A DNA stretch of 32,000 nucleotides, taken from NCBI GenBank assembly GCA_963662715.1, contig OY759724.1, positions 2,040,001 through 2,072,000 of the forward strand. The letters are read 5' to 3'. Both the position numbers and the translations under genes were made by a program. Each line of letters opens with the position of its first letter. The stretch's first letter is position 1. The notes beneath the pieces are model-generated. The model did no database searches. It saw nothing but the letters and a program-made list of their open reading frames with translations, and was not told the DNA's origin. Shown here piece after piece: positions 1,198 to 32,000 of this stretch. The DNA is from Candidatus Omnitrophota bacterium (GTDB taxonomy: Bacteria; Omnitrophota; Gorgyraeia; Zapsychrales; JANLHA01).

Positions 1198-1199
1198 AC

Positions 1200-3094: not shown

Positions 3095-3106
3095 AGAAAT
3101 TTATTT

Positions 3107-4120: not shown

Positions 4121-4149
4121 ATTTTACATTAAAAGGGGAAGAATGAGTT

Positions 4150-4791: not shown

Positions 4792-4847
4792 AAAATGCTT
4801 CCTGTCCCCGGGCCGCGGAAGCGGGTGAGGGCTTACAGTTAGGGTGT

Positions 4848-5765: not shown

Positions 5766-5774
5766 GGAAGATGT

Positions 5775-7222: not shown

Positions 7223-7223
7223 G

Positions 7224-13154: not shown

Positions 13155-13204
13155 CGGCATTGGGAACGATTTTTTGATTGGCCTTATCAAGCAAGGAGGG
13201 GCAC

Positions 13205-16531: not shown

Positions 16532-17237
16532 AATAGGGATTAATCATAACGGAAACATTCATCTGGCCCACGAACTGATCAAACAGGCCAAATTATGCGG
16601 GGCGGATATCGCCAAATTTCAGTTTTATGATCCGGACAAGATTTTCGGCCCTAAAGGCGCCTACCCGGATAAAGATAATTACGAATTTGCATTGACGGTG
16701 CAGTTCGGTTTTGAGGAAGCGAAAAGGCTTAAGGCCTGGTGTGATGAGGAAGGCATAGAGTTCATGGCGTCTGTTTTTGACGAAGAGAGGTTTGAGTGGA
16801 TGGAGGCCCTGGGGATGAAAAGGTATAAGGTCGCCAGCCGCACCGTGCAGGAAGAGAGTCTTTGTAAAAGAATTTTTTCCACTCAAAAAGAAGTTTTCAT
16901 TTCTTTGGGATTCTGGGAGAATGCGGATGTGCCTTATGATTATGAGAACGCCAAATACCTTTATTGCGTGGCGAAATATCCGGCGGAATATAAGGACATC
17001 CATCTGCCGGTGTCTTTTAAAGCCACGCCCTATGACGGCTTCAGCGACCATACGATCGGCATTGAAGCCGCGCTTGTCGCTGTTGCCAGGGGCGCGAATA
17101 TTATCGAAAAGCATTTTACGCTAAATAAGGGCCTTGTCGGTCCGGATCATGTTTGCAGTGCGACTCCGGAAGAGCTGAGCATCTTGTGCCAGCAGTCGCG
17201 GGAGATGGAGAAATTTATTAATGTGGCCGAAGATTAG
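16515..17237 (+). CDS. NeuB-family (PEP-condensing sialic-acid-synthase-like) TIM-barrel protein lacking the C-terminal SAF domain
   Basis: MIIIAEIGINHNGNIHLAHELIKQAKLCGADIAKFQ...YKVASRTV...GFSDHTIG...IIEKHFTLNK. Only 240 aa and ends shortly after the barrel. AAGGAG at 16503-16508 lies 6 nt upstream of ATG 16515; the track's TTG at 16509 is less likely. Confidence 0.7.
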   Translation: MIIIAEIGINHNGNIHLAHELIKQAKLCGADIAKFQFYDPDKIFGPKGAYPDKDNYEFALTVQFGFEEAKRLKAWCDEEGIEFMASVFDEERFEWMEALGMKRYKVASRTVQEESLCKRIFSTQKEVFISLGFWENADVPYDYENAKYLYCVAKYPAEYKDIHLPVSFKATPYDGFSDHTIGIEAALVAVARGANIIEKHFTLNKGLVGPDHVCSATPEELSILCQQSREMEKFINVAED

Positions 17238-17294
17238 TCCGCAAGAATCATTCGTGGAAAATCGGGCCCCGGTCAGCTGTGAGGGAGTAAGATT

Positions 17295-17948
17295 ATGCGC
17301 TTAATTGATATTTCGGTTATTGTTGTGAATCATAATTATGGCACGCTTATCCGCCGGTGCATCCGGTCGCTGCTCAATCAGGACCTGGATAAATCTCATT
17401 ATGAAATTATTGTTGTCGATGACGGCAGTACGGATGACTCCATAAAAGCTTTGGATACCTTTGTCAGGGCCGGGGATATTAAGGTCATTAAAAACGAGGA
17501 GAATTTAGGCATCGGGGCCAGTGCCCAGATCGGGGTGGCGAACTCCCGCGGGAAATATTTTGTCCGGGTTGACTCGGACGATTATGTGCAGCCTCCTTTT
17601 TTGTACATGCTTTATAATTTTCTGAAATTTAACCCGAAATACGTCGGTGTTTCCTGCGATTATTATATGACGGATAATGAAGAGCGGATCATTTCCAAGG
17701 AATCCTTCAAGGATAACGGCATTGCCTGCGGTCTTATGTTCAGGACATCTTACCTGGAAATCATCGGCTCCTATAATTCCGAGAAAAAAGTCTTTGAGGA
17801 CAAAGATTTATCTAGGCGGATGGAGAAAGATAAAATTTTTCACCTTCCCGTTCCGCTTTATAATTATGTCAAACACGGGAATTCCATGACCGATAAACAT
17901 GTCGTATCTGTCTATAAGATAGGAGAATCGGATGAGTCAAAATCATAG
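17295..17948 (+). CDS. Family 2 (GT-A) glycosyltransferase
   Basis: ISVIVVNHNYGTLIRRCIRSLLNQ...YEIIVVDDGSTDDS...RVDSDDY (DxD). Confidence 0.85.
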   Translation: MRLIDISVIVVNHNYGTLIRRCIRSLLNQDLDKSHYEIIVVDDGSTDDSIKALDTFVRAGDIKVIKNEENLGIGASAQIGVANSRGKYFVRVDSDDYVQPPFLYMLYNFLKFNPKYVGVSCDYYMTDNEERIISKESFKDNGIACGLMFRTSYLEIIGSYNSEKKVFEDKDLSRRMEKDKIFHLPVPLYNYVKHGNSMTDKHVVSVYKIGESDESKS

Positions 17949-19851
17949 CCATAAAGCCACATTATTTTCCTTATTAAGCCATTATGCCAGACCGGTTTGG
18001 AAAGAAATTTCCGTTTTGGTTTTTATCACACTAATTGCGAACTTTTTTACAGTCGCACAACCTGTTATTGTGTCAGGCATCATTAATGTGATTACAGAGT
18101 ACAAATCAGGAACTGTCTTGGCTTCCAGAGAGATGAACTCTTCTGTAGTGCAGACTAATTTTTTTAACTTAAATAATATCGGGGGCCGGGTTAAAGACTT
18201 TATGCAGGGGGTTATCCCTTATGAAGGAGCGGGAATTTGGACGATGTTGCTTTTTATGCTGACAGCCTTTTTGCTGTGTGTCCTATTGTCTGCGGCTTTG
18301 AATTACCTTGCTCTGGTTATTACCCGCTGGGTTCGCACCCGCTGTACTCATCTTATTCGGAGAGACGCTTTACAACATCTCCTCAACCTTAACTTGGGGT
18401 TTTACCATAATCAGAAGTCAGGAGAATTGATTTCCCGGATCATTCAGGATTCGCATAATACCGGGCAGGGGTTAGGCCCTCTCGTGCGGGGATATCTTCA
18501 TCATTCTGTATTAATTGTAATGTACAGCACTTATCTGATCAGCACGAGTCTGTGGATGACGGTCTGTACTTTTTTTATGATTATGCTTCATTTTGGCCTT
18601 ACGGAATTAATCAAACGTCCGGTCAGACGGACGACAAGGAAATTTTTTGATAAAGTGGCTGATTTGACATCGACATTACAGGAAACCTTAACAAGTATCC
18701 GCGTTGTGAAATCGTTCGGTGTCGAAGACTATGAGATGGAAAAATTAGATAAGGATTTGAATAATGTCCGGAAGGCCGGTTTTAAAGAGGGGGTTATCCG
18801 CCATATTGAACCCCACGTTCGTGAATTCCTCGATGCCGTAGCTTTCGTCGGGATTTTTTTGGTTGCGGCAATTCAATTGATGAACGAAAGCCTTTCCCTG
18901 CAAGGATTTCTTTTGTATATTTACGTCGGCCGTTTGTTGATTCAGCCGGTTAATAAATTTGCTGTTGCTGTGACCTGGACTCAAGCTCTTTTAGCTTCTT
19001 ATGAACGGTTGAATGAATTGTTTGCCCATACATCACAGGTGAAAGACGGCCCTGTTTTTAAGCCAGATTTTAGGGAAAGCATACAATTTCAAAATGTAAG
19101 TTTCACATACGATATCTATAGTGAGTTTTCGCTCAAGAATCTTAATATTAATTTCAAAAAGGGCGAAAGCATTGCTTTAGTAGGCCCGAGCGGGGCCGGG
19201 AAATCCACATTAACGGACTTGATTTTGAGGTTCTATGATCCCCAGGCCGGGGAAATTCTGATGGACGGGATGGACCTTAAGAAACTGAGAATTTCTTCCT
19301 ACCGTAAATTATTCGGCGTTGTCCCTCAGGAGAGTCTGTTGTTTAATGATACCGTTGCCAATAATATTGTTTTCGGCAGGGACGGACTCACCCGTGCAGA
19401 TGTGATGGAAGCCGCTCAGCTGGCCAATGCGCATGAGTTTATCCAGGATCTCCCTGAAGGCTATGACACGTATGTCGGAGACCGGGGGGTGCGCCTTTCC
19501 GGCGGCCAGCGGCAGCGTATTGCGATTGCCCGGGCCATCGTGGCTAAACCGGAAATCTTGATCTTTGATGAAGCGACGAGTTCGCTGGACAGTCATTCTG
19601 AAAAGCAGGTGCAAAAGGCGATTGACAGCGTTTTGGAACGCTGCAGCGCTATCGTTATCGCTCACCGCTTATCCACGATACTGCATGCTGATAAAATCAT
19701 TGTCCTTAACAAGGGCCGTATCGAAGCTATCGGGACGCACCCGGAACTGCTGAAGATTTCCAGCTTATATCAGCAGCTTTATCACCTGCAGTTTGAAATG
19801 CAGAAGAATATTTTTGAGGGGCAGAATGAAGAATTGTCTGTTAAATCTTAA
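17932..19851 (+). CDS. ABC exporter, fused TMD-NBD half-transporter (MsbA/PglK type)
   Basis: Six predicted hydrophobic helices in the N-terminal half. Walker A GPSGAGKST, signature LSGGQRQRIAIARA, Walker B ILIFDEATSSLD, H-loop IAHRLST. Confidence 0.9.
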   Translation: MSQNHSHKATLFSLLSHYARPVWKEISVLVFITLIANFFTVAQPVIVSGIINVITEYKSGTVLASREMNSSVVQTNFFNLNNIGGRVKDFMQGVIPYEGAGIWTMLLFMLTAFLLCVLLSAALNYLALVITRWVRTRCTHLIRRDALQHLLNLNLGFYHNQKSGELISRIIQDSHNTGQGLGPLVRGYLHHSVLIVMYSTYLISTSLWMTVCTFFMIMLHFGLTELIKRPVRRTTRKFFDKVADLTSTLQETLTSIRVVKSFGVEDYEMEKLDKDLNNVRKAGFKEGVIRHIEPHVREFLDAVAFVGIFLVAAIQLMNESLSLQGFLLYIYVGRLLIQPVNKFAVAVTWTQALLASYERLNELFAHTSQVKDGPVFKPDFRESIQFQNVSFTYDIYSEFSLKNLNINFKKGESIALVGPSGAGKSTLTDLILRFYDPQAGEILMDGMDLKKLRISSYRKLFGVVPQESLLFNDTVANNIVFGRDGLTRADVMEAAQLANAHEFIQDLPEGYDTYVGDRGVRLSGGQRQRIAIARAIVAKPEILIFDEATSSLDSHSEKQVQKAIDSVLERCSAIVIAHRLSTILHADKIIVLNKGRIEAIGTHPELLKISSLYQQLYHLQFEMQKNIFEGQNEELSVKS

Positions 19852-20707
19852 AAGAACATGCGGTAAAAAGGTTAAGCGGTATCTACGTTCCCAAAGACGC
19901 AAATACAAAGAAGCGATTTATTCTCGCTACCCCAGGAACCATATTTTTCATATCTGCGTGGACGAAACGGCTTTCCAGATGACCTTTTTAGATTATCGGC
20001 TGGATTACGCGATCATCGAGCGTATCGAAGGGCTGCGGGAACCGGTAACAACGGCGGTTATTAAATCTCTCGTTCAGCGGGGGAGCCGCGTTCTGGAAAT
20101 CGGAGGATGCTACGGATATTTTACAGCTATTATGGCGCAATGCGCAGGAGAGGAAGGCCGGGTTGTTTCTGTTGAAGGAACGCCCAACAACTATAATATC
20201 CTGAGGGAAAATATCCGTATCAATAATTTTTCCCGGGTTGAGTGCTATAATTTTTTTATAGCCGCGGGACCGGACCAGATCCTCTTTGATGAGGGGGATA
20301 CCAGCCCTTATAAAGCCATGGAAAGGTTGCAGCAAAAGGAGGATTCTCTTGAGCGGTCCGTCAAAGTCCCGGTCAGGACAATAACAGCGTTCTTAAAGGA
20401 AATCGATTTCTCCCCGGACTATATTTTTATGGATATTGAAGGATATGAGGCGGACATTTTTGCGGACTTTTTAGCACAAAAATATTTGCAGCATCACCGG
20501 CCGGTCATTGTCTTTGAGCTGCACCCGGATTATTATCGTCCTGAGAAGGATCTGGTTTATATCGAACGGATACTGACCGACCATAACTATACTTTCAGAA
20601 AGATTGCGACGAATTATATTTGTTTCCCCCAGCAAAACATAAACAGGAATAAAAACCTTTTTTCAAATGTCGTGCATTCATTCTCTCAGAGCCCGTCTCC
20701 TGATTAA
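19826..20707 (+). CDS. FkbM-family SAM-dependent methyltransferase
   Basis: VLEIGGCYGYFT (motif I), VVSVEGTPNNY, FMDIEGYEADIF (the FkbM-typical D-I-E-G-x-E). Start chosen at in-frame ATG 19826; the track start at 19793 lies deeper inside the ABC gene. Confidence 0.75.
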   Translation: MKNCLLNLKRTCGKKVKRYLRSQRRKYKEAIYSRYPRNHIFHICVDETAFQMTFLDYRLDYAIIERIEGLREPVTTAVIKSLVQRGSRVLEIGGCYGYFTAIMAQCAGEEGRVVSVEGTPNNYNILRENIRINNFSRVECYNFFIAAGPDQILFDEGDTSPYKAMERLQQKEDSLERSVKVPVRTITAFLKEIDFSPDYIFMDIEGYEADIFADFLAQKYLQHHRPVIVFELHPDYYRPEKDLVYIERILTDHNYTFRKIATNYICFPQQNINRNKNLFSNVVHSFSQSPSPD

Positions 20708-20758
20708 ATCATGAAAGACAGGGGAAGAAGACACCTGTCTGATGTTTAAAACATTATT

Positions 20759-21415
20759 ATGATAGAAAATTTAAAGAAAAAAATCGGATGTTTTTATTCC
20801 CGTTCATTGCACAGACAATACCTGGATGCTGTTATCTCCCGAAAAGCTCCGCTGGTGTCCCGGACCGTGCTGGATGTCGGCTCTAAAAACAGACGTTATG
20901 ATCATCTTTTTCCCCTGGCCGACCCCCTTGTGGCGATTGACCGCCGTCCGGGGCAAGACAATGTTATGGCCGCCGATGCCCTGCAACTGCCTTTTAAGAA
21001 TCATAGTTTTGATGTTGTGCTATCATTTGAAGTCCTGGAATATATCCCTTCCACGGATGTGGCTTTAAGCGAAATCGCCCGGGTCCTTAAACCGCGGGGG
21101 GTTTTTATTTTTTCTGTCCCGTTCCTGGACCCGGTTCACGGGGACATCGATTATGTGCGGCACACGTACAGGTCCTGGGAGCGTTTGTTGGCCCCTTATT
21201 TTAGCGTTCAGGAGATGATTCAGCTCGGAGGCCGTTTTGCGTGTATCTGGGATTTTTATTTCGAAAAAGTGCGGAACCATTATGGGAAATTTGCTAAACT
21301 GATTGTCCTGCCTTTTTTGTATGTGACAAAAAAGATTGTGTTATGGCTGGATCAGAGAGAGAAAAGCTGGAGGTATCCCATGGGGTATTTTTATGTTTGC
21401 CGGTCCCGTCATTGA
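20759..21415 (+). CDS. Class I SAM-dependent methyltransferase (Methyltransf_11-like)
   Basis: VLDVGSKNRRY, DALQLPFKNHSFDVVLSFEVLEYIP, LKPRGVFIFSVP. Confidence 0.8.
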   Translation: MIENLKKKIGCFYSRSLHRQYLDAVISRKAPLVSRTVLDVGSKNRRYDHLFPLADPLVAIDRRPGQDNVMAADALQLPFKNHSFDVVLSFEVLEYIPSTDVALSEIARVLKPRGVFIFSVPFLDPVHGDIDYVRHTYRSWERLLAPYFSVQEMIQLGGRFACIWDFYFEKVRNHYGKFAKLIVLPFLYVTKKIVLWLDQREKSWRYPMGYFYVCRSRH

Positions 21416-21453
21416 GTTGGTAATCGGAATGAATTTAAGGAAGAAATATAAGA

Positions 21454-22533
21454 ATGCAACAAAGCAAATTAGCACAATCGGTTCAAATTATTAAGCAGCG
21501 AGGCGTCAGGGATTTTTTAAGAATTGCCAGCAATTATTATCTTTATAATTCTCATACCCGGAAAAATCTTCCTGCCCGCTGTCTGACAAAACCGATTCAT
21601 TTGCAGGTCGAAACAACAAGGTTATGTAATCTTCGCTGCAAAATGTGTGAATACTCATATCGTAACGGCGAGAGAAGTTTCATGTCTCTTGAGACGTTCA
21701 AGAAAGTTTTCGGCCAGTTCCCCCAGCTTCGTTCGATGGACTTAACCGGCATTGGGGAACCGTTCTGCAACCCTGATTTCATGAAAATCGTACGCTACGG
21801 GAAAAAACATGGCGTAAAGATCGAATTTTCGACCAACGGACTTCTTTTAACAGAAGCTCATATGGATGAACTGATAGAACTGGATGTGGATAAAATATCT
21901 TTTTCCGTCGATGCCTCAACCCGGGAAACGCATGAAAAGATCCGGCAGGGGTCCTCTTTTGAAAAATTAACAAGTCATATTAAATTGTTAAGCCGGAAGA
22001 AGCGGGGTTTGAGACGGCAGAAACCGGTTGTTTATTTGAGTTACATCGTTTCGCTTGAGAATATCCTGGAGGCCGAGGCGTTTCTTGATCTGGCCGGGGA
22101 GGTCGGGGCCCAAACCGTTGTTTTCCGTGATCTGCTGGTTTTTGAGTCCGGGGATTATTCGGACAAGGATAAGGTTGAGAGTCTGTCCTTGCAATGGCGG
22201 CAAGATTTGGGGAGGAAAATATTGGATAAGGCACGGCATCTGGATATTGAGGCAGCTTTGCCTGATTCCCTGTCCATCTCTGGTCCGAAGAAAAAAATAT
22301 TCTGTTTCCGCCCCTGGCGTTCAGCTTTTGTGGATGTTTTCGGCCATATGTATCCCTGTTGTCGTTTGACGCAAAAGAATGTTAATATCATGGATTATTC
22401 TTTCGGCCACCTGCTTTCCCAGGATGTCAATGAGATATGGAATAATCCCCGATATGGCGCGTTGCGGAAGACCCTGGTTCATCCCACCGCGATCCCCCGT
22501 TTGTGTGAAGGGTGCGGTTGCCTGAGAAAATAA
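21454..22533 (+). CDS. Radical SAM enzyme with C-terminal SPASM/twitch-like auxiliary Cys cluster
   Basis: ETTRLCNLRCKMCEY (CxxxCxxC), GIGEPFCNPDF, STNG. C-terminal CFRPWRSAFVDVFGHMYPCC (C-x12-G-x4-C) and CEGCGC. Confidence 0.8.
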   Translation: MQQSKLAQSVQIIKQRGVRDFLRIASNYYLYNSHTRKNLPARCLTKPIHLQVETTRLCNLRCKMCEYSYRNGERSFMSLETFKKVFGQFPQLRSMDLTGIGEPFCNPDFMKIVRYGKKHGVKIEFSTNGLLLTEAHMDELIELDVDKISFSVDASTRETHEKIRQGSSFEKLTSHIKLLSRKKRGLRRQKPVVYLSYIVSLENILEAEAFLDLAGEVGAQTVVFRDLLVFESGDYSDKDKVESLSLQWRQDLGRKILDKARHLDIEAALPDSLSISGPKKKIFCFRPWRSAFVDVFGHMYPCCRLTQKNVNIMDYSFGHLLSQDVNEIWNNPRYGALRKTLVHPTAIPRLCEGCGCLRK

Positions 22534-22566
22534 CTCCGGCCGGAAGAACTCTTCATAAGGAATTTT

Positions 22567-23994
22567 ATGAAATTATTTTTTATAGAGCCGCCGCTTATCA
22601 ATGCTTCCAACGAGGCGTGTCTTGCCCGCGGAGAACTGGCCGCCCCGGATGTTGCGCCTTTCCCCAATTTAGGCATCGCCTATTTGGTGGCGGTTGCCGA
22701 ACAACTGGGGCATCAATGTCGCGTTGTTGACATGAACGTCTCCCCGGGCGGCTTTGAGCAAAAGGTCCTTGGCTTCTCTCCTGATATTTTGTTTTTAACC
22801 GCCCTGACGACGCAATACCGGGCTGTTAAAATTATCATCAATACGTTTAAAGGGCGAATTCCCATTGTCCTGGGCGGGCCGCATGCCAGCATTTTTGAGG
22901 AAAGACTTTTAGACGACGGGGTGGATATTGTTGTCGTGGGAGAAGGGGAAGAGACCTTGCGTTCCCTGCTGGCCCGTTTCCCTGACCAGCTGGGCAGTGT
23001 GCCGGGAGTAATCTTTAAGAAGGAAGGACAGGTTGTCAAAACCGGCCGGCCGGAGCGCGTGTTAAATCTTGACGATCTGCCGTTCCCGGCCTGGCATCAT
23101 TATCATCTTGATTTATACGACAATATGTACGGCGGCCGGAAATGTTTGCCGGTGATATCGAGCCGTGGCTGTCCCTTCCATTGCGTTTATTGTTTTAAAG
23201 GGGTTTTTGGCGATAAGATCCGGATGAGAAGCGCGGCTAACGTTGTTGAGGAAATAATGTTTTTTAAAAATAAATATGATATCGGAGCCGTGCTTTTTTG
23301 CGATGATTTGTTCACTGTTAAACGGAAACGCGTTGAGGAATTCTGTCATCTTCTCCTGGAGAAAAAAATGGATATTATCTGGCGGTGTCTGGGGAGAGCG
23401 GACCAGGTTGATTACGATCTTTTATCCCTTATGAAAAAGGCCGGATGTCGCTCGATTGCTTTAGGTATTGAATCCGGCAATCAGGAAGTTCTGGATAAAG
23501 TGGGGAAGCGGATCAGCCTGAAGCGCGTTGCGGAAGCGATTCAGGCGTGCCGCCGTGTGGGGATTGTTTCCAAAGGTTATTACATTATCGGCCTGCCCTG
23601 GGATACCCATAAAACGGTGCAGGATACGATCAATTTTGCTAAAAAGAACCGGACGACGCAATCGCAGTTTACGCTTCCTCTGGCTTATCCGGGAACGGAA
23701 TTGTGGGACATTGGAAAGCAAAAAGGGCTTCCGGTTGAAGACTATGTCGAAACTTTTTCCTGGGATAAGAATCTGCCCCCGTATTCATTCTCGGATGATT
23801 TGAGCGAGAAAGATATTGAATATTATATCCGGACGGCCCGCAGGATTGATGCGTGGGCGTATGTCGTTAAAAGATTGCGGAAAATGAAGTGGCAAGAATA
23901 TCCTGGTTTTATAAAATGGATTTGTATTAAAAGTTATGCCCTGCTCAGAGCCAAATTGGCTATGATGTTCAGATTAGCTAAACATCATGCCTGA
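22567..23994 (+). CDS. B12-binding-domain radical SAM enzyme (class B)
   Basis: N-terminal cobalamin-domain-like segment (PNLGIAYLVAVAEQLGHQCRVVDMN...IVLGGPHASIF...VVVGEGEETL). SSRGCPFHCVYCFK (CxxxCxxC). GIESGNQEVL. Confidence 0.85.
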   Translation: MKLFFIEPPLINASNEACLARGELAAPDVAPFPNLGIAYLVAVAEQLGHQCRVVDMNVSPGGFEQKVLGFSPDILFLTALTTQYRAVKIIINTFKGRIPIVLGGPHASIFEERLLDDGVDIVVVGEGEETLRSLLARFPDQLGSVPGVIFKKEGQVVKTGRPERVLNLDDLPFPAWHHYHLDLYDNMYGGRKCLPVISSRGCPFHCVYCFKGVFGDKIRMRSAANVVEEIMFFKNKYDIGAVLFCDDLFTVKRKRVEEFCHLLLEKKMDIIWRCLGRADQVDYDLLSLMKKAGCRSIALGIESGNQEVLDKVGKRISLKRVAEAIQACRRVGIVSKGYYIIGLPWDTHKTVQDTINFAKKNRTTQSQFTLPLAYPGTELWDIGKQKGLPVEDYVETFSWDKNLPPYSFSDDLSEKDIEYYIRTARRIDAWAYVVKRLRKMKWQEYPGFIKWICIKSYALLRAKLAMMFRLAKHHA

Positions 23995-24053
23995 TAATCT
24001 TTGGCGGGGAGGGTGTGGGAAGTCAACATAAAGGACCTTATAAGGAGTTTCTG

Positions 24054-25736
24054 GTGGAAATAAAGGTTGGTCATATTTGTCGGCTGAAAGATCCCGAGCG
24101 CATTTGCGCGGAGACGCCCGTGGACGCGGTTTTGATTGTCGATATCCTGGCTTTTAATAGTTATGTTTTTATCCCCCTGGTGCCGGCCGGCGCCCTGCCA
24201 GGGGACAAAGATATCATTCTTGAAAGCCGGGAAAGTCTTAAGGGCTCCCTGCCGCAGGTGAAGGCCGCCTGTGCCTGCATGTCCTCGCTTAAAGGGGAGG
24301 ATATCGCGGAGGTGGTGGATGAGCTTAAGAAGCCGGCGTTGGAAAAAATTCTAAAGATATGTATTAAACGTTCAACGGAGAATTATTATGAATCCGTCCA
24401 CGCTCCTGCTCAGTCTTCGGCTTTTGTCCCGGGGCAGTCCCGGATTCCCTATGCGGGCAGGGTTTATACCGCAGAAGAGATCGGGAACCTGGTGGATTCT
24501 TCCCTGGAATTTTATCTGACCGCCAGGCGTTATGACAAAGCCTTTTGTGAAAATTTCAATAATTTTTTATCAGGAGCCGGGCTTCCTGGGGCGGTCCGGA
24601 GCTTGACGGTTAATTCCGGGTCATCGGCCAATCTGTTGGCCTTGGGCGCGCTCACCTCTTATAAGCTGGATGATTTGAGCCTGAAGGAGGGGGATGAAGT
24701 CATTACGGCTGCCGCCGGATTCCCGACAACGATTGCGCCGATCATCCAGCATAAACTGACGCCGGTTTTTGTGGATGTTGATTTGGGGAGTTATAATATA
24801 AAGACCTCACGGCTTGAGGAGGCGGTCACGGAAAAAACCAAGGCGATTTGCGTGGCGCATACTTTGGGTATCCCGTTTGATTTAGAACGTGTGCTGGAGC
24901 TGGCCGAAAAACATCGTCTTTGGATCATTGAAGATAATTGTGACGCGCTCGGGGCCGAGTTTCAACTGAAGAAGGAATATCATCTTATCAAAGGGCGGTG
25001 CGTTTCCGGGAAAAGATACACCGGGACCTTTGGACACATAGGAACATCGAGTTTTTATCCGGCGCATCATATTACAATGGGAGAAGGCGGGGCTGTTTAC
25101 ACTCAGGATCTGGAGCTTTATCGGATTTTATTGTCCCTGAGGGACTGGGGCCGGGACTGCTGGTGCGAGCCCGGACAGGATAATACGTGTCAAAAACGTT
25201 TCGGCTGGCGGTTGGGAGATTTGCCGGTCGGCTATGATCATAAATACATATATTCCCATTTGGGATATAATCTGAAGATTACGGATTTGCAGGCGGCGGT
25301 TGGTTTGGCTCAATTGAAAAAGCTGCCGTCTTTCATCGAAGCCCGGAGACGACACTGGCAACTGCTCTGCGACGGACTGAAAGATTTGGCGGATTATTTT
25401 ATCCTGCCGAGCTGTCCCGTTCAGGCTACGCCGTCCCCCTTTGGTTTTGCGCTAACGGTGCAGCCCGGGGCCGGTTTCAAGCGAGACGATATCACTCAGT
25501 ATCTGGAGAGCCAGGGCATTCAGACCCGGACGGTTTTTGCCGGGAATATTTTAAAACAGCCGGCTTTTGTTTACACCCGGCCCGGGCACCGTGTTGTCGG
25601 AGACTTGGCCAACACGGACCGTGTCATGAACGATACGTTCTGGCTGGGCGTTTATCCCGGGTTAAATGACGAGAAACTGGAATATGTTATGGACCATGTC
25701 CGGAGGTTTATCAAGTGCAAGATCAAAGTCTGTTAA
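24054..25736 (+). CDS. rfbH: CDP-6-deoxy-L-threo-D-glycero-4-hexulose 3-dehydrase (E1, PMP/[2Fe-2S]; RfbH/DdhC/AscC-like) with an extra ~90-100 aa N-terminal region
   Basis: From FVPGQSRIPYAGRVY onward it is collinear with Salmonella RfbH as I recall it (SGSSANLLALGALTS, GDEVITAAAGFPTT, EDNCDALG). FYPAHHITMGEGGAV has His in place of the PLP Lys. RDWGRDCWCEPGQDNTCQKRF is the C-x-C-x7-C Fe-S motif. YDHKYIYSHLGYNLKITDLQAA. Start: AAGGAG at 24042-24047 lies 6 nt before in-frame GTG 24054. Alternatives are GTG 24015 or ATG 24279. Confidence 0.85.
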   Translation: MEIKVGHICRLKDPERICAETPVDAVLIVDILAFNSYVFIPLVPAGALPGDKDIILESRESLKGSLPQVKAACACMSSLKGEDIAEVVDELKKPALEKILKICIKRSTENYYESVHAPAQSSAFVPGQSRIPYAGRVYTAEEIGNLVDSSLEFYLTARRYDKAFCENFNNFLSGAGLPGAVRSLTVNSGSSANLLALGALTSYKLDDLSLKEGDEVITAAAGFPTTIAPIIQHKLTPVFVDVDLGSYNIKTSRLEEAVTEKTKAICVAHTLGIPFDLERVLELAEKHRLWIIEDNCDALGAEFQLKKEYHLIKGRCVSGKRYTGTFGHIGTSSFYPAHHITMGEGGAVYTQDLELYRILLSLRDWGRDCWCEPGQDNTCQKRFGWRLGDLPVGYDHKYIYSHLGYNLKITDLQAAVGLAQLKKLPSFIEARRRHWQLLCDGLKDLADYFILPSCPVQATPSPFGFALTVQPGAGFKRDDITQYLESQGIQTRTVFAGNILKQPAFVYTRPGHRVVGDLANTDRVMNDTFWLGVYPGLNDEKLEYVMDHVRRFIKCKIKVC

Positions 25737-26581
25737 CGGTTCTCATCACAAATTATAACACCCTGGACTTTGTTAAGGTCTCACTTCTGGCCCTTCAGAA
25801 GCTTACGATCAACCCGTATAAAGTTTTTATTAATGACAACGGTTCCCGTCCGCGGGAAACGGCGGAGCTGAAAAATATTGCAAAGGACAATCCTCATGTT
25901 TGGGTGAATTTTAGAAAGAGTTCGCGCAAACAGACATCTTACGCCCATGCCGAGGCCCTGGATTTGCTGATCAGCCGTGTTGAAACAAAATATGCTGTTG
26001 TCCTGGACAGTGACTGCACGTTCCTTATGAAAGGGTGGGACGAGTATATGATCCGTCAAGTCGATGATGCGGTGAAGATTGTCGGTTCTCCGCTGGCCAA
26101 AGGGCGAAGCGGTCTGAAACCCGATGATTTTCCTTTTCAGTTTGCGGTTTTATTTGATACGGCTGTTTATAAAAGCCTTAACATCAGCTGTATGCCGGTG
26201 GATATCGCCGGAGGAAAAGACACCTGCTGGGAATGGAAACATAAGTTTACAAACGGAGGATATAAAGGGAAAGTCTTTTCCGCGCTTTGCACCCGGGATT
26301 ATAAGGAAGGGCCGTTCAGGAGCATCACCGGGGTTGCTGAATATTACACCGAGGACGGACGTCTCATCGGGTCCCATTACGGGAGAGGCTCCACACAGGG
26401 CATTACGAAATTCCGGGCCGGAATATACCGTATCCCGTATCTTTCGAAACTGTTGAACATTTATGTCGGGTTAAAAGAGAAAAAGGACTGGTTAGGAATT
26501 TGCCGGCGGATTATTGAAGAACAAGCGGACCTTTGTCCCGCCAGCACCCCGGCCGCCCGGCCCGTCATGGCAGGAAGATAA
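25715..26581 (+). CDS. GT2-like (GT-A fold) glycosyltransferase
   Basis: LLTVLITNYNTLDFVKVSLLALQKL...VFINDNGS...YAVVLDSDCTF (DxD-like). GTG start with GGAGG 8 nt upstream. Overlaps the rfbH 3' end by 22 nt. Confidence 0.6.
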   Translation: MQDQSLLTVLITNYNTLDFVKVSLLALQKLTINPYKVFINDNGSRPRETAELKNIAKDNPHVWVNFRKSSRKQTSYAHAEALDLLISRVETKYAVVLDSDCTFLMKGWDEYMIRQVDDAVKIVGSPLAKGRSGLKPDDFPFQFAVLFDTAVYKSLNISCMPVDIAGGKDTCWEWKHKFTNGGYKGKVFSALCTRDYKEGPFRSITGVAEYYTEDGRLIGSHYGRGSTQGITKFRAGIYRIPYLSKLLNIYVGLKEKKDWLGICRRIIEEQADLCPASTPAARPVMAGR

Positions 26582-26605
26582 AAATTTTTGTTTAAAGGTG
26601 AGATC

Positions 26606-27889
26606 ATGAAAAAAAGAATCGCCAACCTTGTCGCCGGTAACAGCTGTTTGTTTGGGGCGGCATCGGCTTTGAAATTTGTTAATTTCAGAAAATTTAATAA
26701 ACTGCATTGTTTCCGCTCAGCACGGAAAAATGAAGTGAAAGCGACCTGTTTGCCCTGCCGGGGGGTTTTGAATTTAACAGATATGTGCAATTACCGCTGC
26801 GCCTTTTGTGAAATTCATTATTTTCATGATAAGTTTCCGGAGCTGCACAAAAATTTTATCGATATAGAAGTGGTCAAAAAGTATGAAGATTGGATTAAAA
26901 ACCTGGACAGCCTGGCTTTCTACGGTTCTGTGGGCGAACCCATGATGAACAAGCAATTCGCACACATCGCCCGGTACTTAAAGACCAGATATCCGTCCCT
27001 GCAATTAAGCGTGACGACAAACGGATATTTTCTGAATCAGGAGACGGCGGATATCCTGATCGATTGCGGTTTTGACCATGTCCTGGTTTCTCTGCACGCG
27101 GCGAAAGGGGAGACGTATAAAAGACTTTTAGGCGGAAATTTGGACAGGATCCTGAAAAATATCCTCTATTATACAAAGCATAAGAAGCCGCAACAGGAAG
27201 TGGCCGTGAATTTTATGCTGAACCGGATTAACGCGCAGGATATTTATTCAGTTGTCGACCTGATCCTGGACCTGCAGTGTGATTACCTTGTTGTTAATAA
27301 TTATTATGACGTCCGCAATAAATTGGAGCGGGAAATTTCTTATTATTTCAGCCCGGAGGAGGGGAATCATATCCTGGACAACCTCTACTCCTATGCCCGT
27401 AAACAGGGGCTCCGTCTGATGCCCCTTGCCCCGCCGTATTATTATGAGCTGAAGGACTATAGCGATCTTGATTATGATGACTTGACCGTTTCGCAAGGTG
27501 TCTGCCCGGAGCCCTGGCGTTCGGTTCAGTTTAAAGGAACCTTGGAACACGCGGATTCGCATTATATTTCTGTCTGCAACCGCATTGAATTGATGCGTTT
27601 GAACTATAAAGAGTTTTTTGCGGACGGGACAAAAACTTTTTCCGATATCTGGAACCATCCTATCCTGCAGTTTTTGAGAGAGACAGTGAATTCAGAAAAC
27701 ATGAACCTGATATGCCGGTTATGTAAATCCCAGGAATACAAAGTCATCCGGTGTCTGGATAATGACCGTTATCGCATCCTGCGGGACCATGCGGTGAATG
27801 AATTTTACCGGAATTTCAAAAAGCATTGCGCCGGGGCCTATCAGCCTGTCAAGGGGCTGTATCTGCTGGATGAAATTCCTTTTAGTTAA
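26606..27889 (+). CDS. Radical SAM enzyme with SPASM/twitch-like C-terminal Cys motifs (paralogue of 21454-22533)
   Basis: LNLTDMCNYRCAFCEI (CxxxCxxC), GSVGEPMMNKQF, TTNG. C-terminal CPEPWRSVQF...SVCNR...DIWNHP...ICRLC parallels CFRPWRSAFV...PCCR...EIWNNP...LCEGC of the other enzyme. Confidence 0.75.
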   Translation: MKKRIANLVAGNSCLFGAASALKFVNFRKFNKLHCFRSARKNEVKATCLPCRGVLNLTDMCNYRCAFCEIHYFHDKFPELHKNFIDIEVVKKYEDWIKNLDSLAFYGSVGEPMMNKQFAHIARYLKTRYPSLQLSVTTNGYFLNQETADILIDCGFDHVLVSLHAAKGETYKRLLGGNLDRILKNILYYTKHKKPQQEVAVNFMLNRINAQDIYSVVDLILDLQCDYLVVNNYYDVRNKLEREISYYFSPEEGNHILDNLYSYARKQGLRLMPLAPPYYYELKDYSDLDYDDLTVSQGVCPEPWRSVQFKGTLEHADSHYISVCNRIELMRLNYKEFFADGTKTFSDIWNHPILQFLRETVNSENMNLICRLCKSQEYKVIRCLDNDRYRILRDHAVNEFYRNFKKHCAGAYQPVKGLYLLDEIPFS

Positions 27890-27929
27890 ATTTTTTGGGT
27901 AAGGATTTTTGATTGTTGAGAAAGGACAG

Positions 27930-29426
27930 ATGTTAGAACGCACAAAAGATCAAGTGAAAATTTTGTTGATGTACCCCCCGACCGGATCGATCGGGACCTA
28001 CAATACGCCGACAGGATTGCTTTATATCGCAACGGTCCTTCAGCATCATGGATATTTCGTCCGGCTTGTCGACTGTTCGGTCGAGCCGCGCTATCAGGAT
28101 ATTTTAGACCGGGAAATACCGGACACGGATTTGCTCGGCATTTACGCGATGAGCGTGCATATCCGTTATCTTCTCCCGGAGCTCAGGCGACTGAAGGCCT
28201 TGAATCCACGGCTCAAAATTATCTGGGGCGGCCCGCATGCGATCCTTTTCCCCGAACAGACGGCCAGCAGCCCTTTGGCGGATATCGTGACCCGGGGAGA
28301 GGGGGAAGACTTGATGCTGGAAATTGTCCGGGAATATGAAGCCGGCACCCTGGATTACCGCAAGATCAAAGGAATTTATTTTAAGGATAACGGGCAGATC
28401 ACTTCAACCCCTCCGCGGCCTTTTGTCGACGTCAATCAACTTCCGTTTCTGGACTGGTCTTTTTTAAAGAAAGACGTCCTTGATACGGTGCGTAAAGGAA
28501 TTATCCGGGTGCAGGCCAGCCGGGGTTGCCCTTACCGATGCGCCTTCTGTATTAATGTGCTTACGAATAACAGAAAGATGCGGTATCGGGATCCGGAAAA
28601 GGTCGTTGATGAAATCGAATACTTAACCCGGGAATATCATATCCACCGGGTCGGCTTCCGGGATGAGGTCTTTATGTCCAACCGTAAACAGGTGAAGGAT
28701 ATTGCCCAGGGGATTCTTGACCGGGATATCCATATTACCTGGCTGGCTAATCCCCGGGTCGAGTATCTCAGGGAATCCTATATCGACGATGCTTATTTAA
28801 AACTGCTGGCCGATTCCGGCTGCAACAAGCTGCAGTGCGGAGGAGAATCCGGGTCCCAGCGGATTCTGGATATGCTGCATAAAGGGATTAAAGTGGATGA
28901 TATCCTTAATTTTGTCCGGAGAACCAAAAAATATAATATTTATCCGCTGGTCGCTTTTATGACCGGGATTCCCACCGAGACAAAAGCGGAGCAGATGCAG
29001 ACGCTGAGGCTTATCAGGGATATTTTACGTATACAGCCGGTAGCTTTTATCAACGGCCCGGCGAATTACCGCCCTTATCCCGGAGGGGAACTGTATGATA
29101 TGTGCGTGAAGGAGTATCATTTGAAGATGCCGGATTCCCTGGAAGGCTGGGAGAAAGCGGAAATTCTGGGGGGGAGTGCGCCTCCGTGGGTCGAAGACGT
29201 CTGTTTCAACCAGTTTTTGTGGACCAGCACGAAGGCGGCGACCTATTCTTTCTCCTATTTGTGGAAACAGATCCGCCGGAATCCTTTGAAAGGGTTGGCG
29301 ATTTCCTTTTTAAGCATAATTTCGAGGATGCGTTTACGCTGGCTTTTTTACCGTTTCCCTTTTGAATTTTATCTGTTGAATTTTTATTATCAAAGAATCC
29401 TTAAAAAAGTCCCGGAATACAGTTAA
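27930..29426 (+). CDS. B12-binding-domain radical SAM enzyme (class B)
   Basis: VKILLMYPP...PTGLLYIATVLQHHGYFVRLVDCS...IIWGGPHAILF...VTRGEGEDLM. ASRGCPYRCAFCIN (CxxxCxxC). GGESGSQRIL. Start at ATG 27930; the track's TTG at 27909 is possible. Confidence 0.85.
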   Translation: MLERTKDQVKILLMYPPTGSIGTYNTPTGLLYIATVLQHHGYFVRLVDCSVEPRYQDILDREIPDTDLLGIYAMSVHIRYLLPELRRLKALNPRLKIIWGGPHAILFPEQTASSPLADIVTRGEGEDLMLEIVREYEAGTLDYRKIKGIYFKDNGQITSTPPRPFVDVNQLPFLDWSFLKKDVLDTVRKGIIRVQASRGCPYRCAFCINVLTNNRKMRYRDPEKVVDEIEYLTREYHIHRVGFRDEVFMSNRKQVKDIAQGILDRDIHITWLANPRVEYLRESYIDDAYLKLLADSGCNKLQCGGESGSQRILDMLHKGIKVDDILNFVRRTKKYNIYPLVAFMTGIPTETKAEQMQTLRLIRDILRIQPVAFINGPANYRPYPGGELYDMCVKEYHLKMPDSLEGWEKAEILGGSAPPWVEDVCFNQFLWTSTKAATYSFSYLWKQIRRNPLKGLAISFLSIISRMRLRWLFYRFPFEFYLLNFYYQRILKKVPEYS

Positions 29427-29431
29427 GGACA

Positions 29432-30400
29432 ATGATTATGCTGAACGGCTTGCGGCTCGCTTTGGGTAACGAAATCAAAGAAGGCCCCTGGGGAGGAGGC
29501 AATCAGTTCCTGTCTTCTTTTAAAACGCATTTAGAGAGTAAGGGAGCCAAGGTTTTCTTCCGTTTAGAAGATGATCTGGATGTGATTATTTTGTTTAATC
29601 CCCGCAGAGAGAGCGGGACGTTCCACCATAAGGATGTTAAACGGTATAAAAAACGTTTTCCTAAAGCGAGAGTGATTCACCGGATCAACGAAACCGATAA
29701 GGCTAAAAACACCCGGTTTATCGACCGTTTACGCCTTGAGGCCAATAAAGTGGCCGATGCCGTTATTTTTATCAGCGAATGGGTCAGAGACTATTATATC
29801 AGCAAAGGTTTTGACCAGAGGATCCCTTCCTTCGTCATCCGCAACGGACCTGATGAAAATATTTTCAACTCGCGGGGATACACCCCGTGGCAGCCCAACG
29901 GGTCCCTGAGAGTTGTTACGCATCATTGGTCGGATAATCCCATGAAAGGTATTGATATTTATCAATATTTTGATAGACTTCTGAATGATCCCTGGATGAA
30001 GAGGTTATTCAACTTTACGTATATTGGCCGTTACCCTAAAGGGGTTCAATTGCAGCAGACACAGTGCGTCCCCCCTTTATTCGGTGCGGATCTGGCGCGT
30101 GAACTGAAAAAGCATCATGTTTATTTGACGGCGGCCCGATGGGAATCCTGCGGTATGCATCAGCTGGAAGGCGCCTGTTGCGGCCTGCCGGTTCTTTATA
30201 TTGATGAAGGCGGGGGCGTCGTTGAGACCTGCCGGGATGCCGGGATTAAATTTACCGTTGAGACCTTCCCGGTCAGCCTTTTCAAAATGAGGGAAGAATA
30301 TCCTTCCTTGCAGCCGAAGTTAAACGCGTTCCCTTTTAATGCCCGCTTGATGTGTCAGGAATATGAGAATGTTATCGAGAAAATTCTTATGAGCTCCTAG
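29432..30400 (+). CDS. GT-B fold glycosyltransferase, GT4-like
   Basis: C-terminal ESCGMHQLEGACCGLPVLYIDEGG fits the E-x7-E / G-x-P-V region of GT4 retaining transferases. ATG 29438 is an alternative start with better RBS spacing. Confidence 0.65.
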   Translation: MIMLNGLRLALGNEIKEGPWGGGNQFLSSFKTHLESKGAKVFFRLEDDLDVIILFNPRRESGTFHHKDVKRYKKRFPKARVIHRINETDKAKNTRFIDRLRLEANKVADAVIFISEWVRDYYISKGFDQRIPSFVIRNGPDENIFNSRGYTPWQPNGSLRVVTHHWSDNPMKGIDIYQYFDRLLNDPWMKRLFNFTYIGRYPKGVQLQQTQCVPPLFGADLARELKKHHVYLTAARWESCGMHQLEGACCGLPVLYIDEGGGVVETCRDAGIKFTVETFPVSLFKMREEYPSLQPKLNAFPFNARLMCQEYENVIEKILMSS

Positions 30401-30411
30401 CGAAAGGAGAT
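30359..30411 (+). repeat. Direct repeat copy A: last 14 codons of the GT4 gene + stop + GAAAGGAGAT ribosome-binding site
   Basis: Manual alignment with 31238-31290 gives 39/53 identical and 21 of the last 23 identical (ATGAGCTCCTA-NN-GAAAGGAGAT). Confidence 0.7.
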
Positions 30412-30464
30412 TCAGTTGAAGAAAATAAAAGAAGGTTAATTGTTACCTGAAAGGAGATCGGCCT

Positions 30465-31184
30465 GTGAGTGCTAAAGCCTATAATACGGGAGATAATATT
30501 AATGTCGGTAATGCGCAATGGAATTTTTCGGCTGCCGCAAAGAATTTTGATGAACATGTCAAAAAGTCGGTTCCGTTTTATGAAGCCGGGCACGATTATA
30601 TTGCCCAGCTGGCCAGTTTCTTTTTGCGGGATCAGGCCGTTGTTTATGAAATCGGCTGTTCGACAGGGGAACTGGCTCATCGAGTCCTGCGGCACAATTC
30701 AGAGAAAAAAGTCAAATATGTCGCTATTGACAATGTGGCGCCTATGGTCACACAGGCGAAGAAACGGCTCAAAGACGATAAAAGGGCCCGGGTTGTTCTG
30801 GGAGACGCTCTGACCCATTCTTATAAACCCTGTTGCCTTTATCTTTCTTATTATACGATTCAGTTTATTAAGCCCTGCGTGAGACAGGAACTTATCAATA
30901 AAATTTACAATGCCTTGGAATGGGGCGGGGCTGCCATTATTTATGAAAAAGTCAGGGGCACGGATGCCCGTTTCCAGGATATCCTGACCCAGCTTTACAC
31001 GGACTACAAGTTGGCCCAGGGATTTACGGAAGCAGAAATTATTCATAAGACACGGAGTTTGAAAGGAGTTCTGGAACCGTTTAGCACGGCCGGGAACATG
31101 GATTTATTTAAAAGGGCCGGTTTTGTGGATATTATGATGATTCAGAAATATCTCTGTTTTGAAGGGTATTTGTGTATTAAATGA
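30465..31184 (+). CDS. CmoA-family protein (carboxy-S-adenosyl-L-methionine synthase-like class I methyltransferase fold)
   Basis: Collinear with E. coli CmoA as I recall it. W-x-F...F.EHVKKSVPFYE (cf. [22 protein letters not shown]). VYEIGCSTGE (cf. VYDLGCSLGA). YVAIDNVAPMV (cf. IIAVDNSPAMI). YTIQFIKPCVRQELINKIYNALEWGGAAII (cf. [30 protein letters not shown]). AQGFTEAEIIHKTRSL...KRAGF (cf. ANGYSELEISQKRSML...HKAGF). GTG start 8 nt after GAAAGGAG. Confidence 0.65.
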   Translation: MSAKAYNTGDNINVGNAQWNFSAAAKNFDEHVKKSVPFYEAGHDYIAQLASFFLRDQAVVYEIGCSTGELAHRVLRHNSEKKVKYVAIDNVAPMVTQAKKRLKDDKRARVVLGDALTHSYKPCCLYLSYYTIQFIKPCVRQELINKIYNALEWGGAAIIYEKVRGTDARFQDILTQLYTDYKLAQGFTEAEIIHKTRSLKGVLEPFSTAGNMDLFKRAGFVDIMMIQKYLCFEGYLCIK

Positions 31185-31279
31185 TGGAAAGAGGAAAGGG
31201 GGTAGGGGTATTTTTCCCCTCCGATGAATTGGCCTGGGATAATGAAAATGTATTTAAAATCATTTTCATGAGCTCCTAA
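31181..31279 (+). pseudogene. 32-codon ORF (MMERGKGVGVFFPSDELAWDNENVFKIIFMSS*), probably the surviving 3' end of a decayed GT4 paralogue; alternatively a translationally coupled micro-ORF
   Basis: ATGA overlap with the CmoA-like stop. The C-terminal ~14 residues and the following RBS are homologous to the end of the 29432-30400 GT4 gene. Below the size cut-off of the ORF track. Confidence 0.35.
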
Positions 31280-31290
31280 AGAAAGGAGAT
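31238..31290 (+). repeat. Direct repeat copy B: remnant gene end + GAAAGGAGAT RBS preceding the 31294 gene
   Basis: See copy A. Encodes ...DNENVFKIIFMSS* versus ...EYENVIEKILMSS* at the GT4 C-terminus. Confidence 0.7.
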
Positions 31291-31293
31291 CTG

Positions 31294-31983
31294 ATGCAAA
31301 CTTTTACAGAAAAACAAACTCGGCAGGAATACTGGGATATTCAAATCCAGTATTCAAGATTGAAATTCGCTTTCTGTAAAGTGAGCATCCCGTGTGTCAA
31401 GCATTGGAAAAGAATTATCACTCGCTGCCAAAAAGGATCGGCTATCAAGGGGCCGATCCTGTGCCTGGCGACCCGTAACGGCAGGGAAATCGATGTTTTT
31501 CGTAATGTTTTTTTCGGGCACCCTATGAGGGTCGCTTTCATGGGGCTTTTGGAACAACATAAAAACGCTTTTTCTTCCCGCTGGCGTTTTCTGGAAACGA
31601 TTAATAAAAGTAACATTAATAATATTAAAGAAGGCAGTGTTGTCGGAGTCGAGATAAATCCAGATGGGAGAAGACAGGATGTGTTAATCGCGAGCTTTGA
31701 CGAACTTCCGGCAGAATGGGGGGGGAAGTTTCAGGTCGTGTACTCAAATTCTTTGGATCATGCCCAGGACCCTTATCGGGCGTCTCAAGAATGGTTCCGT
31801 GTTCTTCAGCCCGGCGGCTATTTGATCCTCGGTTCTCCGGGGGAAAATATTAATCCTTCCAAGGTTGATATCGTCGGGAATATTGGGCTTGCCGATATTC
31901 AGGAATTATTCCCCGGGGAACTGCTTTATCATAATAAGTACGGGAATGCTTTCCAGGACACCATTATTAGAAAGCGGAAATAA
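31294..31983 (+). CDS. Methyltransferase-fold protein with a degenerate SAM-binding loop (function unknown)
   Basis: FQVVYSNSLDHAQDPYRASQEWFRVLQPGGYLILGSP resembles the Methyltransf_11 motif IV / post-motif region, and VVGVEINPD is motif-II-like. The motif I position reads ILCLATRNGREI instead of a Gly-rich loop. Contains a G8 tract at 31718-31725. Confidence 0.45.
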   Translation: MQTFTEKQTRQEYWDIQIQYSRLKFAFCKVSIPCVKHWKRIITRCQKGSAIKGPILCLATRNGREIDVFRNVFFGHPMRVAFMGLLEQHKNAFSSRWRFLETINKSNINNIKEGSVVGVEINPDGRRQDVLIASFDELPAEWGGKFQVVYSNSLDHAQDPYRASQEWFRVLQPGGYLILGSPGENINPSKVDIVGNIGLADIQELFPGELLYHNKYGNAFQDTIIRKRK

Positions 31984-32000
31984 CTGAGGCAGAAAATGTC

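Follow-up and report, generated by a model that had tools for sequence, protein, structure and literature searches.

We analysed a 32,000-nt window of the genome of a Candidatus Omnitrophota bacterium (contig OY759724.1, positions 2040001-2072000; the genome is a single contig of 3.36 Mb) and focused on a gene near the window's end whose 239-aa product resembles CmoA, the synthase of carboxy-S-adenosylmethionine (Cx-SAM). Cx-SAM is among the very few natural analogues of S-adenosylmethionine (SAM), and its known uses are in the tRNA modification uridine 5-oxyacetic acid (cmo5U), 3-thiaglutamate, a microcin C variant and phage DNA. The CmoA-like gene lies in a glycan operon, directly before a gene for a 229-aa methyltransferase-fold protein. 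A first-pass annotation had proposed that the two act together in carboxymethylating a sugar. The features of the locus are as follows (RBS, ribosome-binding site).

30465..31184, + strand: CmoA-like gene, 239 aa, of a 'type-2' sister clade of CmoA; probable Cx-SAM synthase (from profile, fold and tree)
31294..31983, + strand: 229-aa class I methyltransferase-fold protein, candidate cofactor user (C-terminal half of Methyltransf_11, E 6e-7)
30449..30458, + strand: Shine-Dalgarno-like GAAAGGAGAT before the GTG start; the motif has three copies, the others near 30402 and 31281
30358..30411, + strand: direct repeat copy 1 (repeat family D1, 54 nt), comprising the glycosyltransferase gene's true 3' end and stop codon together with an RBS
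31237..31290, + strand: direct repeat copy 2, a non-coding remnant of the glycosyltransferase 3' end with an RBS, immediately ahead of the 229-aa gene's ATG
29432..30400, + strand: GT4/GT1-like glycosyltransferase, 322 aa, with weak GT1/GT4 matches, upstream of the CmoA-like gene
1..32000, + strand: nonulosonate-type glycan operon, extending past both window ends

All genes of the operon within the window were on one strand. Its sugar genes encode two NeuB homologues, CMP-sugar cytidylyltransferases, DegT aminotransferases, a PglD-like acetyltransferase, RmlC, dehydratases and epimerases, accompanied by a thiamine pyrophosphate (TPP)-dependent E1 alpha/beta pair, glycosyltransferases, an ABC exporter, and FkbM-type and other methyltransferases. 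The CmoA-like gene therefore does lie inside a sugar-modification operon, as first annotated. Its apparent place as the penultimate gene proved to be an artefact of the window edge, since open reading frames (ORFs) on the same strand go on for 15 kb or more past its end.

The CmoA-like ORF (30465-31184) starts with GTG and has the Shine-Dalgarno sequence AAAGGAGA 7 nt upstream. Its product matched TIGR00740, the CmoA equivalog model, with 141.6 bits (E 3e-41) over model positions 20-234 of 239, and E. coli CmoA (PDB 4GEK) at E 1e-25, with 29% of residues identical along the full length; hhalign aligned it with CmoA without gaps at a probability of 99.9. These results bear out the full-length homology to CmoA given in the first-pass annotation, but the score stays below the curated TIGR00740 cut-off of 193.3 bits. 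Clade relatives of the protein scored 130-168 bits against the same model. An AlphaFold2 (AF2) model based on an alignment with 120 relatives reached a predicted local distance difference test score (pLDDT) of 92.9 and predicted a class I Rossmann methyltransferase fold with a three-helix lid that would bury the cofactor. In a Foldseek search, E. coli CmoA (4GEK) matched this model at template modelling (TM) scores of 0.85/0.88. The top PDB matches were 4GEK, 4IWN and 1IM8, with TM 0.84-0.90 and a root-mean-square deviation of 2.4 over about 225 columns, and the best structural matches were E. coli CmoA and H. influenzae YecO.

The type-2 clade to which the protein belongs comprised 2874 database clusters at E < 1e-10. 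Identities of 50-57% were found across Omnitrophota, Bacteroidota, cyanobacteria and alpha-, gamma-, delta- and epsilon-proteobacteria; members also occurred in Planctomycetes, Actinobacteria, Elusimicrobia, Leptospirales and Myxococcota, giving more than 10 phyla overall. Cultured carriers of the gene included Tenacibaculum maritimum, Elizabethkingia anophelis, Cellulophaga omnivescoria, Chitinophaga pinensis and Croceitalea dokdonensis. An alignment of 120 clade sequences contained 41 invariant columns, and NCBI names the proteins only 'methyltransferase domain-containing'. In a maximum-likelihood tree, the type-2 clade (support 91/99) was sister to a group of canonical CmoAs, all phage CmoAs and both validated enzymes, with an uncertain root because the outgroup branches are very long. 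Phylogenetic bracketing of the clade's function failed, given this sister position and the root on very long branches. We also observed a 731-aa open frame in an Acetobacteraceae metagenome-assembled genome (L018:8507-10699) with a CmoA-like domain at its end and about 500 unassigned residues before it, which may be a fusion or just an upstream frame without a stop.

Residues Y39, D62, G64, S66, D89, D117, N132 and F137 contact SAM in E. coli CmoA (PMC3663124), and the carboxylate of Cx-SAM is touched by one side chain only, that of Arg199 (PMC3663124, PMC4482062). The 239-aa protein keeps Y39, G64, S66, D89 and D117 (its D114), together with T134/Q136/F137 (F137 being its F134), E164/K165 (E164 being its E161) and K198. 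Most SAM contacts and E164 were thus retained, but D62 is changed to E, N132 is changed to Y, and Arg199 is out of register. Validated and canonical CmoAs vary at N132 as well, with L, T, V, C or I there. Gapless MAFFT and hhalign alignments paired Arg199 with Thr196 of the 239-aa protein (E. coli Q-K-R199-S-M-L vs H-K-T196-R197-S-L), and the C-terminal K-x-R-S-(M/L) match claimed in the first-pass annotation was therefore off by one. Arg197 stands one position after the Arg199 column, and a near-invariant Lys200 stands at +4. The type-2 clade has invariant residues of its own by the active-site lid (R164, R169, Y129/Y130 and K200), as well as a new invariant Arg in the motif E-K-V-R-G-x-D-A-R-F-Q-D.

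Comparison of 41 family members revealed two layouts of the Arg199 helix. Canonical CmoAs have layout A (K-R-x-x-L-E), as do the proteins from Erwinia, PaBG and Alcaligenes phages. In layout B (K-x-[RKQ]-x-L-[KR]), the basic residue has moved on by one helical turn; this layout was found in the whole type-2 (glycan) clade, in Staphylococcus, Streptomyces and faecal phage proteins, and in SpCmoA of Synechococcus phage S-B43, which has E at the Arg199 column followed by K at +1 and R at +4. SpCmoA makes Cx-SAM from SAM and prephenate with a kcat of 2.33 per s, ten times faster than the E. coli enzyme (PMC12783734). Because this validated enzyme has the same layout B, the missing in-register Arg199 does not exclude Cx-SAM synthesis by the 239-aa protein.

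CmoB, the transferase that uses Cx-SAM on tRNA, was not found in this genome: the best match to TIGR00452 scored 39.5 bits, and PF08003 gave none at E 1e-10 or better. PheA, a chorismate mutase fused to prephenate dehydratase, is encoded, indicating that prephenate is made. The first-pass annotation had considered a housekeeping cmoA/cmoB pair elsewhere in the genome; we did find a second CmoA, at contig positions 2419140-2419898, but this one too sits within a glycan locus, and the genome has no cmoB. The gene order around it is a Wzx-type flippase, CmoA, a 282-aa Methyltransf_11 protein, NeuB, a NeuC-like epimerase, others and a CMP-transferase. The second CmoA thus resembles that of the window in having a nonulosonate-type glycan locus, a methyltransferase next to it and no CmoB. 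It differs in its score of 248.7 bits (above the cut-off), in keeping Arg199, in its 30% identity to the 239-aa protein, and in belonging to a CmoB-less subgroup of canonical CmoAs that was present in 12 of 301 genomes sampled from the phylum. The second glycan locus spans contig positions 2410866-2426662, about 347 kb past the window, and starts with a glycosyltransferase, DegT, others and a GT2 gene before the flippase.

Gene order around the type-2 clade was analysed in 67 loci in which the gene was recovered, out of 80 genomic loci taken; the sample is without the loci of the closest relatives (70-79% identity). A methyltransferase-fold gene was found at +1 in 32 of 66 loci (48%) and in 8 of 67 at -1; the background rate at other positions up to eight genes away was 0-8%, mostly about 2%. 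Independent Pfam tallies agreed, giving Methyltransf_11 for 34 of 133 neighbours at ±1, with FkbM for nine, and 3 of 116 at ±4. Five or more unrelated families were represented among the partner methyltransferases (Methyltransf_23, CARME-like, FkbM, Methyltransf_11-half and weakly CmoB-like). A 360-aa Methyltransf_23 partner occurred in NeuB/NeuC/CMP-transferase clusters, a 440-aa CARME-like one in Bacteroidota, an FkbM-type one in cyanobacteria, and a family of about 250 aa with a Methyltransf_11 half in Omnitrophota. No sugar pathway was common to the host loci, which included NeuB/NeuC clusters, capsule loci of Bacteroidota, sulfotransferase loci of cyanobacteria, carrier-protein/thioesterase loci of Rhizobiales and sites unconnected with glycans. 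A near-invariant synthase beside a variable transferase would be the expected look of a cofactor maker and its users, and the pairs cmoA-cmoB, tglE-tglF, mccS-mccB and cmoA-cmoX follow the same pattern (PMC10491745, PMC12783734). In 150 Flavobacteriales genomes, the type-2 gene and the Bacteroidota partner were each present in less than 1%, too rare for informative co-occurrence. Among the immediate neighbours in the 67 loci, we also noted three Asn-synthase/GATase proteins, to whose family the phage amide ligase CmoY belongs, and three DAHP_synth_1 proteins (KdsA/AroG family).

We then compared the distribution of the type-2 gene with that of CmoB. True CmoB was present in eight of the 301 own-phylum genomes, and canonical cmoA adjoined cmoB in six of these; in two (G203 and G220), the type-2 gene was the sole CmoA-family member. 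Every CmoB genome of the sample (8/8) had some CmoA-family gene. Among 50 genomes with the type-2 gene, 12 had true CmoB and 38 had none. Six of these 12 were without canonical CmoA, one of them a complete 8-Mb Thiohalocapsa chromosome, and in four of the six cmoB lay mid-contig with no adjoining cmoA. The genomes with true CmoB and the type-2 gene only, hereafter orphan-cmoB genomes, thus numbered eight in total, with CmoB scores of 202-434 bits. On one gammaproteobacterial contig, the type-2 gene and cmoB were divergent neighbours.

CmoB is selective for Cx-SAM (PMC4482062). Given this selectivity, and with the type-2 gene as the only CmoA-family gene of the orphan-cmoB genomes, it is simplest to suppose that the type-2 enzyme supplies Cx-SAM to CmoB there. 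In these genomes the gene was usually outside glycan loci and without a class I methyltransferase at +1, which fits a role in tRNA modification. For the 38 of 50 type-2 genomes without CmoB, it follows that another consumer of Cx-SAM is needed. Two side observations concern individual orphan-cmoB genomes. In the Leptospirales genome G325 (L146:6162-6899), a PEMT/ICMT-type membrane methyltransferase directly follows the type-2 gene, which hints at a lipid-directed use. In G203 (L134:6075-6704), a dienelactone-hydrolase-family gene lies directly upstream of the orphan cmoB, in the usual place of cmoA.

The first-pass annotation had described the 229-aa protein as having a replaced Gly-rich loop, and this was confirmed: the loop reads C-L-A-T-R-N-G-R-E, not G-x-G-x-G. 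The motif I form C-[LMF]-[GA]-T-R-N-G-R-E was conserved across the whole family. An acidic residue where strand 2 ends is kept, in G-V-E-I-N-P. The family is rare, with 33 clusters among 5.8 billion proteins. The protein matched the C-terminal half only of Methyltransf_11, and its AF2 model (pLDDT 94.3) gave generic class I methyltransferase matches only, at TM 0.45-0.53. By sequence it is not a member of the CmoB family, which is marked by an N-terminal domain of roughly 100 aa and by K91/Y200/R315: NCBIfam and Methyltransf_9 gave no match to it, and a phmmer search with E. coli CmoB found nothing in this region of the window. Of 71 metagenomic loci of the 229-aa family, 52 were informative, and none of these had a CmoA-family gene within 4 kb; conversely, no homologue of the 229-aa protein was found in 80 type-2 clade loci. 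On these two counts, the 229-aa protein was rejected as a conserved dedicated partner of CmoA. Because the informative loci of its family are without CmoA-family genes, a reading of the odd motif I as a signature of Cx-SAM use is not supported. The protein is still a candidate acceptor enzyme of Cx-SAM by its position.

The local arrangement was then compared with two genomes of the same genus (G258 and G205). In both, the 229-aa gene's homologue comes straight after the glycosyltransferase gene in the syntenic operon, and no CmoA-family gene was found anywhere in either genome. In the window, a 54-nt direct repeat brackets the CmoA-like gene. The two copies are 74-75% identical to each other and only 42-54% like the orthologous junction in the same-genus genomes. 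Because the copies resemble each other far more than they resemble the relatives' junction, the duplication, and hence the insertion of the CmoA-like gene, is lineage-specific. Copy 2 marks the downstream edge of the inserted cassette. These results indicate that the CmoA-like gene is a recent single-gene insertion ahead of the 229-aa gene and that the pair in the window is young. The 229-aa homologues of the two relatives are damaged: that of G258 (L115:7990-8580) has lost motif I through an in-frame deletion of 42 aa, and that of G205 (L116:7908-8557) has a frameshift between residues 116 and 125, possibly an assembly error. As a sign of dependence on CmoA, this damage would fit, and we did not count it, with two genomes and an insertion seemingly younger than their split.

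Taken together, the best-supported reading, to which we assign a probability of about 0.55, is that a Cx-SAM synthase has been recruited to this glycan operon. The 239-aa protein would be the synthase of a second, highly conserved CmoA type, forming Cx-SAM from SAM and prephenate in the way of E. coli CmoA and phage SpCmoA; Cx-SAM is probably its product. Its gene would have entered the Omnitrophota operon as a single-gene cassette between the glycosyltransferase and methyltransferase genes. Because the genome is without CmoB, the consumer would have to be a non-CmoB methyltransferase-fold enzyme, and it may place a carboxymethyl group on a sugar, a nucleotide-sugar or a glycan made by the operon; we lean slightly towards such a glycan use. 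Which transferase consumes the cofactor is doubtful. The nearest candidate would be the 229-aa protein at +1, with other methyltransferases of the operon, such as those encoded at 11181-13154, 19793-20707 and 20759-21415, or the partner of the second CmoA as alternatives. What stood of the first-pass proposal was thus the synthase recruited outside tRNA modification, on the indirect, converging evidence of the missing CmoB, the second CmoA in a glycan locus, the +1 coupling and the eight orphan-cmoB genomes, but not its pairing with the 229-aa protein.

Several observations weigh against this reading. The 239-aa protein scores under the curated CmoA cut-off and has Thr in place of Arg199, and the true C-methyltransferases CysG/BelI are among the structural neighbours of its model (TM 0.79). 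The function of its clade is not bracketed by phylogeny, because both validated enzymes fall in its sister group. The 229-aa family lives without CmoA-family genes in all 52 informative loci, and most of the orphan-cmoB genomes are metagenome-assembled, with unknown completeness. No natural O- or N-carboxymethyl sugar was found in the literature searched, which is no proof of absence; nor did the literature searched contain a report of glycan use of Cx-SAM or CmoA.

Known Cx-SAM systems offer partial parallels. The 239-aa protein has the closed-lid fold of E. coli CmoA and largely keeps its SAM-contact residues and E164/K165/K198, and, as with CmoA/CmoB in tRNA cmo5U34 modification (PDB 4GEK, 4QNU), a methyltransferase-fold gene comes next. 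It differs in its sub-cut-off score, in Thr at Arg199 with Arg at +1 and Lys at +4, and in E for D62 and Y for N132; moreover, the window's genome is without CmoB, its gene lies in a glycan operon, and its downstream protein is unrelated to CmoB. The SpCmoA/CmoX/CmoY system of phage S-B43, which makes 5-carboxymethylcytosine in DNA, shows that Cx-SAM can be recruited outside tRNA (PMC12783734). It shares with the window a CmoA relative without Arg at the Arg199 column and with basic residues at +1 and +4, and its partner is a non-CmoB transferase. SpCmoA is, however, only 30% identical to the window protein and falls on the canonical side of the tree, and its acceptor enzyme is a homologue of C5-cytosine methyltransferases that acts on DNA. 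For 3-thiaglutamate (TglE/TglF) and microcin C (MccS and MccB's C-terminal domain), the published descriptions likewise show a biosynthetic cluster in which the synthase gene adjoins that of a dedicated carboxymethyltransferase, and the MccB domain shows that a Cx-SAM transferase need not resemble CmoB; their targets differ, being a peptide thiol and a peptidyl-nucleotide (PMC10491745).

The alternative that survives best, although we consider it unlikely, is that the 239-aa protein is an ordinary SAM-dependent methyltransferase with a CmoA-like closed-lid fold. Its role would be the methylation of some common small precursor, for instance a keto acid, a nucleotide sugar or a nonulosonate intermediate, and its neighbours would be further tailoring enzymes. 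The low TIGR00740 score, the out-of-register Arg199, the clade's changes at D62 and N132 and its new invariant Arg all favour such an enzyme, but N132 is variable in canonical and validated CmoAs too. Real small-molecule C-methyltransferases, CysG/BelI and SgvM, are among its fold neighbours, glycan loci are rich in methyltransferases, and the NCBI name goes no further than a methyltransferase domain. However, an ordinary tailoring enzyme would not be expected to stay near-invariant in host loci without a common sugar pathway, and two independent tailoring steps would not be expected to show so sharp a coupling at +1 to varied methyltransferases. The eight CmoB-bearing genomes would also be left without a source of Cx-SAM.

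Less probable still is that the protein makes Cx-SAM and its place in the glycan operon is incidental, the gene being a mobile redundant copy or serving an unknown non-glycan consumer (tRNA, lipid or peptide), with the 229-aa protein a plain SAM methyltransferase. A lineage-specific single-gene insertion ahead of a family that normally does without CmoA would look like this, as would a second CmoA already in the genome, and in the orphan-cmoB genomes the type-2 gene lies outside glycan loci, presumably serving tRNA. Yet no CmoB or other known Cx-SAM user was found in the genome, whose other CmoA is glycan-embedded too. The inserted gene, moreover, has its own RBS in a tightly packed single-strand operon and stands directly before a methyltransferase, as is the rule across the clade. 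Finally, it is very improbable that the type-2 clade makes a different SAM-derived cofactor for its partner transferases, carrying another group or made from a donor other than prephenate: its position as a distinct sister clade and its own invariant lid-region residues would fit this, but the orphan-cmoB genomes argue that its product can serve the Cx-SAM-selective CmoB (PMC4482062), and the clade shares its lid layout with the validated SpCmoA.

Beyond this locus, we tentatively extend the recruitment of a Cx-SAM synthase to the whole clade, at a little under even odds: the type-2 synthase, spread horizontally through surface-glycan loci of more than 10 phyla, would feed varied non-CmoB methyltransferase-fold enzymes that carboxymethylate sugars and in some genomes would replace canonical CmoA for tRNA cmo5U. 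If true, bacterial surface sugars would carry an unrecognised acidic carboxymethyl decoration, the present name 'methyltransferase domain-containing' would be wrong for thousands of genes, and biocatalysis would gain several new families of natural carboxymethyltransferases. New here are the assignment of the window gene to a distinct second CmoA type, the two layouts of the Arg199 helix and their tie to a validated enzyme, the substitution pattern in orphan-cmoB genomes, and the recognition of the local pairing as a recent insertion before an otherwise CmoA-independent methyltransferase family.

Other parts of the operon also yielded observations. Radical-SAM enzymes numbered at least six, three of them with a B12-binding domain. 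Their genes lie in window stretches 1-1197, 21454-23994 and 26588-29426; B12-binding types were found at 22567-23994, at 27909-29426 and once upstream of the window, a SPASM type at 21454-22533, and two were plain. This richness suggests C-methylation or other radical tailoring of the operon's sugar. The two NeuB paralogues lie at 7182-8279 and 16509-17237, and the second is short (242 aa) and without a SAF domain. The TPP-dependent E1 alpha/beta pair (pyruvate/acetoin dehydrogenase type, 4848-6788) adjoins the PglD-like acetyltransferase gene and may put a two-carbon branch on the sugar or transfer an acyl group to it. A 321-aa ORF (8276-9241) gave a weak MptE-like match (former DUF115, Maf-type), and the stretch 9883-13154 holds a 450-aa ORF with a faint glycerophosphotransferase match and a 657-aa ORF with a C-terminal methyltransferase domain; together, these three ORFs may provide glycan-to-protein or polymer transfer functions.

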